Shown: positions 33,001-36,000 of the stretch, one piece after another
How positions within the stretch are numbered: position 1 is the stretch's first letter
How the letters are laid out: the number at the start of each line of letters is the position of its first letter
Assembly (NCBI GenBank): GCA_965247305.1
Contig: OZ252030.1
Location: forward strand, 4,593,699 to 4,657,698
Length of the DNA: 64,000 nt
Reading direction: 5' to 3'
Source of the DNA: Bryobacterales bacterium
GTDB lineage: Bacteria > Acidobacteriota > Terriglobia > Bryobacterales > UBA6623
Position numbers: made by a program

Positions 33001-36000
33001 TCTCGGCGGCCTGAGCCTTGCGCTACTGAGCTCGGTCTATATCGGAGTCGACGTTCTGCGCGAACGAAAGAGCCCACAGAAACTCGATTCGACCAAGTTG
33101 GCAGTTCTCCACTGGACGCAGGCTATCGCAGCCGTGATGCTGATCACGAACGGCGCGATGAATCTTTCTAGCATCAACGGAGGGCGCTACGGGGTGCACG
33201 TCGGTCTCGGCTTGCTTCTACTCTTCGATTTCGTCGACGCCCGTCGGTTCGTCAAGAGACCGTTCCCGACGCCGATGGCCTGGTGGTATCGGCACATGGA
33301 CGGCATGATAGGTGGTGGCATCGCGTTCCATACTGCATTTGCCGTCTTTGGATTCAGTCGGCTGATCGGCATCGGGCCTGTCGAAGGGCCACTGGTATTC
33401 CTGCCTTGGGTGTTGCCCGCGGCGATCGGCGTGCCGGCGACGAACATATGGATTCGGCGGTACAAGCGGAAGTTTGGTGAATTGGACTCGGCCGAACTCG
33501 GTGGGCCAAAGCCCGCGCGGACTTAAGGAGATCCGAGGAGATCCGGGAGATCCAAGGAGATCCGGGAGATCGGGAGATCGGGGACGAGATCGGGGACGGA
33601 GCCCTAATAGAGATCAATAGAGATCCGGGACGGAGCCCTAGAGATCCCTAGAGATCCGGGACGGAGCCCTAATGAGATCCAATGAGATCCGGGACTGAGA
33701 TCCGGGACGTGAGATCCGGGAGATCCCGGGAGATCCCGGGAGATCCGGGACGGAGCCCTAATTGCGCGTCTTGGTCTCCAAGACCGTTTACCGAACCGTT
33801 CGACAATGCTGCTAGCGAACAGCGGCTAGGCGCTTGGGCTTCGGGCCCGGCTTCTGACGCCTGAGCATCCTACCCATCTGCGGCTCCAAAGCGCTGACGA
33901 ACGCATCGTTCCCCAGCGGACGCCCTCCGTACGTAGCTTCTCGGATCGCAGCGTTGGTGCTCGCAGCAGCCGGTTGGGCGGGCACAGCGCGGCTCTCTTC
34001 CGCGCCTTGAAACTTCTTCCAAGCGGGTTCGTCGATCAATGGAGATCGCTCGAATCCCGCATGAGTCCTTGCGCTCGACCACGGGTACAATTCCGCCTCA
34101 CCGACTATTCCGGCGCGCACCGGATTGAGGTCTACGTAGGCCACCGCCTGAACGAGATGGTCGGCGTCGAGCGGGCACGAATAGTAGCGGCCTTGCCAAA
34201 GGTGCCCCGAGCGTCCGTAACGTAAGTTGAACACGCGCGCGTATCGAGAATGAGCTTTGCGTAGACCGCGGGCAAACGAATCGCCGAACTCCGGGACCGC
34301 GACCAGGTGCACGTGGTTGCTCATCAGGCAGTACCCGAGTACACGGATACCACATCGCTGACACTCTTCGAGAATCAAGTCCAGATAGAGTCGCCGATCG
34401 GCGTCGGAGACGAAAGTGATTTGGCGGTTGTTGCCCCGCTGAGTAATGTGGTGCGGGACGCCCGCCGCAACCACACGTGCCATTCGCGGCATGCAGATCT
34501 GACAGCAGTATTGCACGGGCGGCTTGCAAGCCCCCAATTAGGGCTCCGTCCCGGATCTCCGTAGGCACTCCACTCCGTCCCGGATCTCCCCCTCGGATCT
34601 CCCGGATCTCCCGCAATTAGGGCTCCGTCCCGGATCTCCGTCCCGGATCTCCGTCCCGGATCTCCCATCTCCCGGATCTCCCCAATTAGGGCTCCGTCCC
34701 GGATCTCTCGTCCCGGATCTCTCGTCCCGGATCTCTGAGCATCGATTCTGCGCGTTCGACGAACGGCCCAAAATCTGCCACTTCCGCGGTTGGTACACGC
34801 TCGCCGTAGCTGAGGCTAATTAGCCCAACATTTCAACATTTGGACTTGAATCGCGCGCGAAGTCAACTGTGTTGTAAATCTCATCCGCGTTCTCAAGCGA
34901 GAACGGTGGCGATACCTCGGGTGTTGCTTCCCTTGGCTTTGACAAATCCTCGGCGGTCGGCGTTGGCTCGCTGACTAGCTGACCGTCCTCCTTCGCACAG
35001 GCCAGCTCCCACAGGGCAAAAGCGATTGCGATGTCGCAGGTGGCACCGAAGCGGCACCAGCCCTGACGTCGAATCCCTACATGCGGTCTTTCACCACAAG
35101 CGCAGGTAAGCTGGTTGATGCGTGCTCTAGCGATCGCTGTGATGCGGTCGTAGATGTCGTTGAATCCCGCCACCTCCTCTTCCGGCCCAACGAGTTCCTT
35201 GAACGAGACGGCAATGCGATAGCCTGCTGCGCAGTCGAACGAGTCGGGGTTCCCAAACTTGCCGGTGTAGACCAGCGCGCGCCGCCACTCCAGGGCGCCA
35301 GTCGGCAAGGCTCCGTCCTCGCCAGGGTTAGAAAAACTGACCATATCTCGCTACGACATCCGTGCCCAGGCTGTCGAGAACCAAAACGGATGCTAGCAAG
35401 ACGCTTCCGACTTTCGGGGATTCGCGGCGCCGCCGCAACGTCGTGGCTTGAGGAGGGAACGTAAACAGTCGCCATACGCTGGTCCACCACTACAGCAAAG
35501 GGTCGGCGAACGTCGATTGGTCCGACCGTCTGGCGGGGACGTTTGCGATAGTCGCGGCTGGAGAGGCACAGATAGCGATGACTCGACTCCCAGATCTGGA
35601 CACCTTCGCGAAAGAGCGCCTGATTCGCGTGCGGGGTCGGCACGCGACAACCTCGACAGCTCAATCAATATTGAGTACAGGAGGCTTGCTACCACAAACC
35701 CCAGAAATCAAGTGGAGCCGACGACGGGACTTGAACCCGTGACCTCGTCCTTACCAAGGACACAACCTATGGCCAGAAACACCACCTAATACTAACCTTA
35801 TCTATAAGATGTACTTCGATCCACCATAGCATCGTAGCTCATGTCAGCACTATGTCAGCGAGAGGCTGGCGTACTACTGGCAGGCAATAGGGAACGGATG
35901 ACATTCAGTGACCGCGAAATGAGTCCAACCGGGACCGGATGTTCGCGCGTATCCGCCGAACATCGAGTTGCTGACGGACGCGCCATAGGCGATCGAACTG

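Follow-up and report, generated by a model that had tools for sequence, protein, structure and literature searches.

TIRtrons, or TIRYTs (Di Nocera et al. 2013, PMC3733652), correspond to TnpA-Y1 subclass 2.1 (Quentin et al. 2018, PMC6006769) and to RAYT group 1 (Bertels et al. 2017, PMC5581495). In the passages of these papers considered here, subclass 2.1 is given for ~15% of the strains surveyed (PMC6006769), and TIR dimers and clusters are mentioned. HTH similarity of the C-terminal extension (Bac_DnaA_C, HTH_23, HTH_28) is named there for subgroup 2.1.2, and for subgroup 2.1.1 the conserved extension alone (PMC6006769). The passages of the three papers contain nothing on nested tip duplications, cut position, direction of growth or mechanism. 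Figure 9 and the alignment file of PMC3733652 might show such repeats. No biochemistry of subclass 2.1 was found in the literature searched.

The sister family is represented by TnpA-REP and its BIMEs (Ton-Hoang et al. 2012, PMC3333891; Corneloup et al. 2021, PMC8266576). According to the parts of these papers used here, HUH enzymes leave a 3′-OH and a 5′-phosphotyrosine, and the 3′-OH can prime synthesis or resolve the link (PMC8266576). For BIME amplification a cycle of nick, extension and resealing, with a second cleavage, has already been proposed (PMC3333891, Fig. 7B). BIMEs have hairpins, a GTAG guide, a dinucleotide cut and whole conserved units, whereas in elements of the type described below the breakpoint is set by distance and the units are partial and variable. 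REPtrons stay put as units in the same accounts, while whole TIRtron elements occur at many sites. The Replitrons (Craig 2023, PMC10288648), as described in the sections consulted, are HUH transposons whose fuzzy ends carry donor flank, as those of TIRtrons do. Unlike TIRtrons they have a eukaryotic Rep-type enzyme, direct terminal repeats and variable target duplications, and stacked tip arrays are not described in those sections.

The window element

The window is a stretch of 64,000 nucleotides from contig OZ252030.1 of a Bryobacterales bacterium, and the nearest relatives with names are Bryobacterales genomes; contig positions are named as such below. Its transposase gene lies between a perfect and identical pair of 25-bp inverted repeats, and the arrays reported by the earlier note are present outside both of them (Table 1). 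In both arrays the units open with the element tip when read from outside in. The flank bases AAG recur as the tail of the left-array unit 33547-33556.

Table 1. Features of the TIRtron and its two arrays, in window positions.
Feature	Position	Strand	Remarks
Y1 HUH transposase gene (TIRYT)	33812..34492	-	226 aa; PF01797
Innermost terminal inverted repeat, 25 bp, 3′ side of gene	33740..33764	+	GGGAC core at 33747-33751
Innermost terminal inverted repeat, 5′ side of gene	34535..34559	-	identical to the 33740..33764 repeat
Array, downstream end (3′ of gene)	33528..33739	+	17 units, each opening with the element tip
Array, upstream end	34560..34735	-	11 units
13 bases, start of IS3-family left end	34560..34572	-	within the innermost right-array unit
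Flank bases AAG	33525..33527	+	overlap the stop codon of gene 32723-33526

The transposase matches PF01797 above the cut-off in a profile search. It carries H60-V-H62, W99, Y119 and a WSS motif, and H60, H62 and Y119 are at least 90% conserved among 111 homologous sequences. The closest fold to its predicted structure (pLDDT 91) is TnpA-REP 4er8, the best match at E 1.8e-8. With the motifs NHVH, WQ, YVDLNP (consensus YVELNP) and WSS and a length of 226 aa, the protein fits subclass 2.1 as characterized in the passages considered of PMC6006769 (NHVH, W[EQ], YIELNP-like, SS, median length 238). A helical C-terminal extension is conserved in the transposase and its homologues; a search with this region returned 6 close relatives and no others, and none of the 111 homologues matched an HTH family of Pfam at E 0.05.

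A Y1 HUH gene between inverted repeats with a GGGAC-type core, present in several copies, makes the element a TIRtron, as the earlier note had it. Relatives that are 97-99% mutually identical occupy 4 sites in the same genome. An assignment to REPtrons (RAYT groups 2-3) was rejected on these relatives, on the inverted repeats found instead of GTAG REP hairpins and on NF047646, which gives 61 bits against a cut-off of 80. The GTAG tag is absent at the element ends, and the 5′-side end folds like its shuffles (z -0.8 to -1.0). IS200/IS605, with its Y...Q motif, subterminal hairpins and precise single-strand excision, was also set aside, since the window family has a Y...NP motif and inverted repeats. 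At the GGGGWSAS consensus, which most but not all TIRtron repeats contain, the window element reads CGGGACGG, 6 of 8 positions; 107 of 288 related ends fit it exactly.

Several neighbouring features were noted. A short perfect hairpin lies just inside the repeat 3′ of the transposase gene (33768-33784) and is a possible terminator. On the right side there is a stretch resembling a piece of tRNA, as judged by eye (35713-35760; very high depth in the sequencing runs), and beyond it an IS21-like gene pair (36178-38240). The full IS3-family element whose piece stands in the right array is present in genome G001. Truncated left ends of this family adjoin TIRtron ends at 4 of 5 exact sites in the window's own genome and also in G001 (window 34560-34572; contig 6464756, 2653475 and 7063091; loci L304-L308). 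They bring to mind IS1397, which targets REPs.

Tip duplications among related elements

How general are such arrays? Relatives were collected from family genomes, GTDB and metagenomes, giving 241 gene copies, 171 of them with a detectable inverted repeat. A GG(G/T)AC core in the repeat was present in 144 elements, and one same-site duplicate was dropped. We counted the 265 ends that had 150 bases of outer DNA, some of them anchored on an outer copy. The ends are kin, and the counts below are not independent.

A unit consists of the first n bases of the end, often with the last 0-5 bases before the junction, and is thus a tandem duplication across the tip. A perfect duplication at the innermost junction was found at 93 of the 265 ends (143 elements, several phyla). 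In an earlier set, controls at shifted positions gave 2/184, 2/186, 3/109 and 1/55, or ~1%. Outward copies of the tip lie on the same strand at 68 of 191 ends and on the opposite strand at 3, with a null of 0.4. An outer control word 23-30 bases outside (25/191) falls within arrays and was left unused. A more lenient test let through 9 of 1078 ends belonging to other dispersed repeats, and among sampled background GG(G/T)AC sites 21 of 1500 passed. In the window's own genome 29 of 83 ends have the perfect duplication, and the terminal 8-mer is copied outward at 33 of 83 (1 on the opposite strand). The end arrays are real and general among related elements. They stand far above chance and are built separately at each site, and the arrays that the earlier note placed near contig positions 6464890, 3079852 and 2540328 are there.

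With phylum labels assigned from record titles, duplications occur at 13/31 ends in Acidobacteriota, 7/15 in Desulfobacterota/Deltaproteobacteria, 3/18 in Planctomycetota, 2/2 in Omnitrophota, 0/2 in Bipolaricaulota, 0/1 in Nitrospirota and 2/6 unclassified; the metagenome, family and own groups add 17/76, 42/96 and 8/18. These counts sum to 94 and not 93, because one locus identifier holds two elements.

Both element ends are affected equally (47 and 46 ends). The rolling-circle elements IS91/ISCR, known for one-ended transposition, resemble TIRtrons in having one fixed and one variable breakpoint and in showing no target duplication. The ori and ter of IS91 differ from one another, and its transposase is of another class; in TIRtrons the two ends are alike and both stutter.

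The longest array (L191/L102) was scored at 73 units of 9-11 bases. At L268 (contig 5316400-5317800) a 380-base copy of the 5′ part of the element lies directly outside the same end. It shows 8 differences from its neighbour and is either an exceptionally long unit or a sibling that has been truncated.

Breakpoints, order of growth and origin of the arrays

The geometry of the arrays was measured on 82 single duplications. The starts of the copies lie 12 to 5 bases ahead of the GG(G/T)AC core (mode 8, sd 1.6), and their ends fall mostly between 4 bases before and 7 after the first base of the core, with a tail (sd 3.0). Duplication lengths are 6-26, with a mode of 9-10. A position filter bounds the breakpoint ranges; a scan free of this filter yields the same peaks. 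The tip sequence varies among families, so the start of the duplication follows the distance from the core and not sequence. Of the earlier claim that all copies end at the same base, the repeated word stands; the breakpoints do not share one base, their starts being spread over ~8.

When the two ends of an element are compared, agreement is 0.95-1.0 between the core and 10 bases inward, 0.73-0.86 over the 5 bases outside the core and ~0.35 from 8 bases outward. Among sibling elements the identity is 0.76-0.93 over the 6 bases outside the core against 0.93-1.0 inside. Flanks having intact paralogues often stop 5-9 bases before a core. Among 28 long copies, 14 match their own end past the shared repeat and one matches the other end (by more than 2 bases). 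Siblings 93-99% alike carry different arrays, which contain local flank.

Microhomology at the 82 duplications was 0 bases in 28, 1 in 15, 2 in 25, 3 in 9 and at least 4 in 5. Simulated nulls gave 44-50% with zero, 13-15% with two and 5-9% with four or more. Zero microhomology (34%) is thus below its null, and two-base overlaps, mostly GG, are enriched (25/82). Since 28 duplications have no microhomology, homology is not required, and a two-base GG overlap is favoured.

If the units accumulated one by one, then we can ask: at which junction were they added? Duplications were removed stepwise, starting at the junction beside the intact repeat (inner peeling). The left window array, in which 13 units are removable as exact duplications and 4 remain, allows 10 consecutive steps from inside and one from outside. 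The right array allows 8 de-duplications in all and leaves 4 longer units for which local duplication does not account; from inside it gives no steps, because the IS3-family piece is there. Another array of the same genome reduces fully to flank and end in 4 exact steps. In 32 of 51 arrays holding three or more different units, with one 73-unit array left out, inner exceeded outer peeling, and the reverse held in 10 (p 0.0009), with 135 peel steps in total for 315 units. In simulations the inner:outer ratio was 137:0 when units were added at the inner junction only, 67:52 when any junction could take them and 3:125 when only the outer one did. A lenient reading of the outer side gave 26:13 in favour of inner (p 0.05), with 17:6 in other genomes and 9:7 in the window's own; under it the polarity is weaker overall and disappears in the window's own genome. 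A shuffled-order control (38 vs 11) does not tell inner growth from growth at any junction. It seems that new units are added mainly, not strictly, at the element-side junction.

This bears on the word telomere-like, used by the earlier note, which misleads because units seem to be added chiefly next to the element, opposite to the way a telomere grows. A telomerase-type array was rejected also on the internal site, with no free chromosome end, and on units copied from local DNA. Growth that leans inward, unlike that of a telomere, is also found at a CRISPR leader.

We lean toward reading the arrays as the record of repeated cycles in which the enzyme nicks outside the core, a polymerase recopies the tip and the enzyme reseals. 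As judged from the scars, the enzyme would bind the core and the inner repeat and nick the strand reading into the element at the measured distance, remaining on the 5′ end of the element as a phosphotyrosine. With strand displacement, a host polymerase may then extend the 3′-OH of the flank, in most cases for 9-13 bases until it halts close to the bound enzyme, whereupon the new 3′-OH would attack the phosphotyrosine and replication would fix the added copy. We take the tighter breakpoint for the nick; the looser one would mark where displacement synthesis halted, and resealing would duplicate what lies between the two. If the cycle needs a full core, it would mostly run at the innermost junction, and older units would be displaced outward. 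The same intermediate, given a distant 3′-OH, could lead to transposition, one-sided joints and adjacent deletions, and the arrays would be by-products of aborted initiation of the rolling-circle type rather than a protective structure.

Same-strand copies, the fixed start distance, copying of the own end, site-specific arrays, the excess of inner peeling, the events lacking microhomology, the presence of the catalytic residues and the failure to find Ku all argue for this cycle as the best model. The nick, the extension and the attack on Tyr-5′P are the same as in the TnpA-REP/BIME model, as far as given in the parts of PMC3333891 and PMC8266576 used here. The nick-and-recopy idea of the earlier note is the best fitting, although, with Fig. 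7B of PMC3333891 in view, it is not new. Some observations call for more than this cycle. The enriched GG microhomology suggests an annealing step or a sequence preference missing from the model. Faithful recopying fails to account for the sibling differences over the 6 bases just beyond the core, and other events are needed for the IS3-family piece and for the 4 units left over in each array of the window element.

The strongest rival, which we hold unlikely, is a double nick. Here a dimer of the enzyme would cut both strands, one outside the core and the other at the core, with ~10 bases between the cuts, and fill-in with resealing by the enzyme or a ligase would leave a scar like a target duplication. 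The length mode of 9-10 and two fairly tight breakpoints suit it, and Ku would be unnecessary if the enzyme does the resealing. Yet the inner breakpoint varies twice as much as the outer one, exact copies of the own end extend 20-58 bases beyond the start of the core, and a target duplication is not seen at the insertions of 45 elements, which are indistinguishable from the null.

A fork stalled by bound transposase or by a G-run might also produce duplications through host replication slippage or template switching, with no catalysis at all. We find this improbable. It agrees with the enriched GG overlap, and runs of identical 9-10 base units, for example in L191, resemble later slippage. However, it would have to explain the 28 of 82 events without microhomology, the lack of enrichment of long microhomology, the 21 of 1500 background core sites, starts at a set distance from the core and unit lengths that differ inside one array.

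Slightly less probable still is repeated insertion beside existing ends, followed by excision or deletion that leaves pieces of the ends. Different TIRtron ends, IS3 pieces and the 380-base truncated copy, 2% different from its neighbour, do adjoin ends, and arrays fail to collapse completely; but the strand ratio (68 vs 3), the own-end matches (14 vs 1) and the nesting of units, often in exact order, speak against it.

A sequencing or assembly artefact, for which it could be said that the 4 runs are one sample and possibly the source of the assembly itself, that Logan contigs break within repeats and that L003 has long G runs, is scarcely credible in view of the absence of differences in the run contigs and of the arrays in other genomes, in metagenome contigs of several phyla and in the cultured strain L126. 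The left array is found in one piece and without differences in the Logan contigs of all 4 runs. The right array was recovered as overlapping pieces, with no differences in runs X1 and X2; in X1 the contigs cover 32500-33755, 34110-34645 and 34637-34765, again with no differences. The earlier note had likewise denied an artefact.

End joining by Ku is also unlikely to be a requirement. Ku was not found in the window's own genome (one contig, 95% complete) or in G001, G008, G044 and G094, all of which carry duplications, nor in any of 5 other genomes whose completeness is unknown. Among the 77 family genomes it was found in 27.

The family itself is known and the cycle was proposed for its sister family. 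The footprint at TIRtrons appears unpublished, being undescribed in the passages of PMC3733652 and PMC6006769 named by the earlier note and in the titles and opening parts of abstracts searched, with subscription journals outside this search. Tentatively, TIRtrons may represent an undescribed type of transposon, in which both inverted ends serve as rolling-circle origins, the cut falling at a set distance from a motif in double-stranded DNA, with transfer of the 5′ end. Units written on the element side would then form an ordered, dated record of activity, and completed one-ended firings would give solo ends and adjacent deletions.

The scars predict the strand, the position (5-12 bases outside the core) and the order of events, so that the mechanism is directly testable. 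If our reading is true, they would give genome-scale support to the nick-extend-reseal cycle of BIME growth proposed in 2012, and, should units be added in sequence at a single junction, the system could be tried as a simple event recorder.

Insertion sites and neighbouring DNA

Empty insertion sites were sought for 144 elements in the window's own genome and in all loci, and none was found; four candidates proved to be matches to self or to repeats. Sixteen ends with an intact paralogue of their flank were picked by hand; at 15 of them no continuation was found within 8 kb across the end, and the remaining one matched a further repeat copy without the opposite end. Four queries for orthologous filled sites found no shared junctions in G001, where element interiors are shared at other sites.

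TIRtron ends truncate IS copies and genes whose other half is missing, one of them a sibling of the window transposase gene. Such ends lie at contig 181716, 2599528, 2657294, 5353455, 6810169, 5544811 and 2056661, among others. The truncated neighbours suggest adjacent deletions or one-ended joints. TIRtrons, with the one-sided breakpoints at their ends, may have been missed as a cause of deletions in Acidobacteriota and in other groups.

At window 34736-35410 the runs carry a second version of the right flank, with 12-21 differences, an 8-base gap and higher depth, which starts exactly at the outer edge of the array in 3 of 4 runs. It has no paralogue within the assembly and is perhaps a strain with another neighbour at that junction.

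A miniature element of 97-98 bp with short inverted ends is inserted exactly inside the GGGAC-type repeat. It is an apparent parasite of TIRtron ends; no transposase was identified for it. Among the 77 family genomes, clear matches were found in the window's own genome (near contig 6180190, 730750, 3500300, 8088300 and 5569400) and in G001 (six loci) only. Thirteen loci were examined (L269, L270, L273-L276, L279-L283 among those with the element), and all 11 copies that could be parsed show a 3-base duplication, CGG or CAG.
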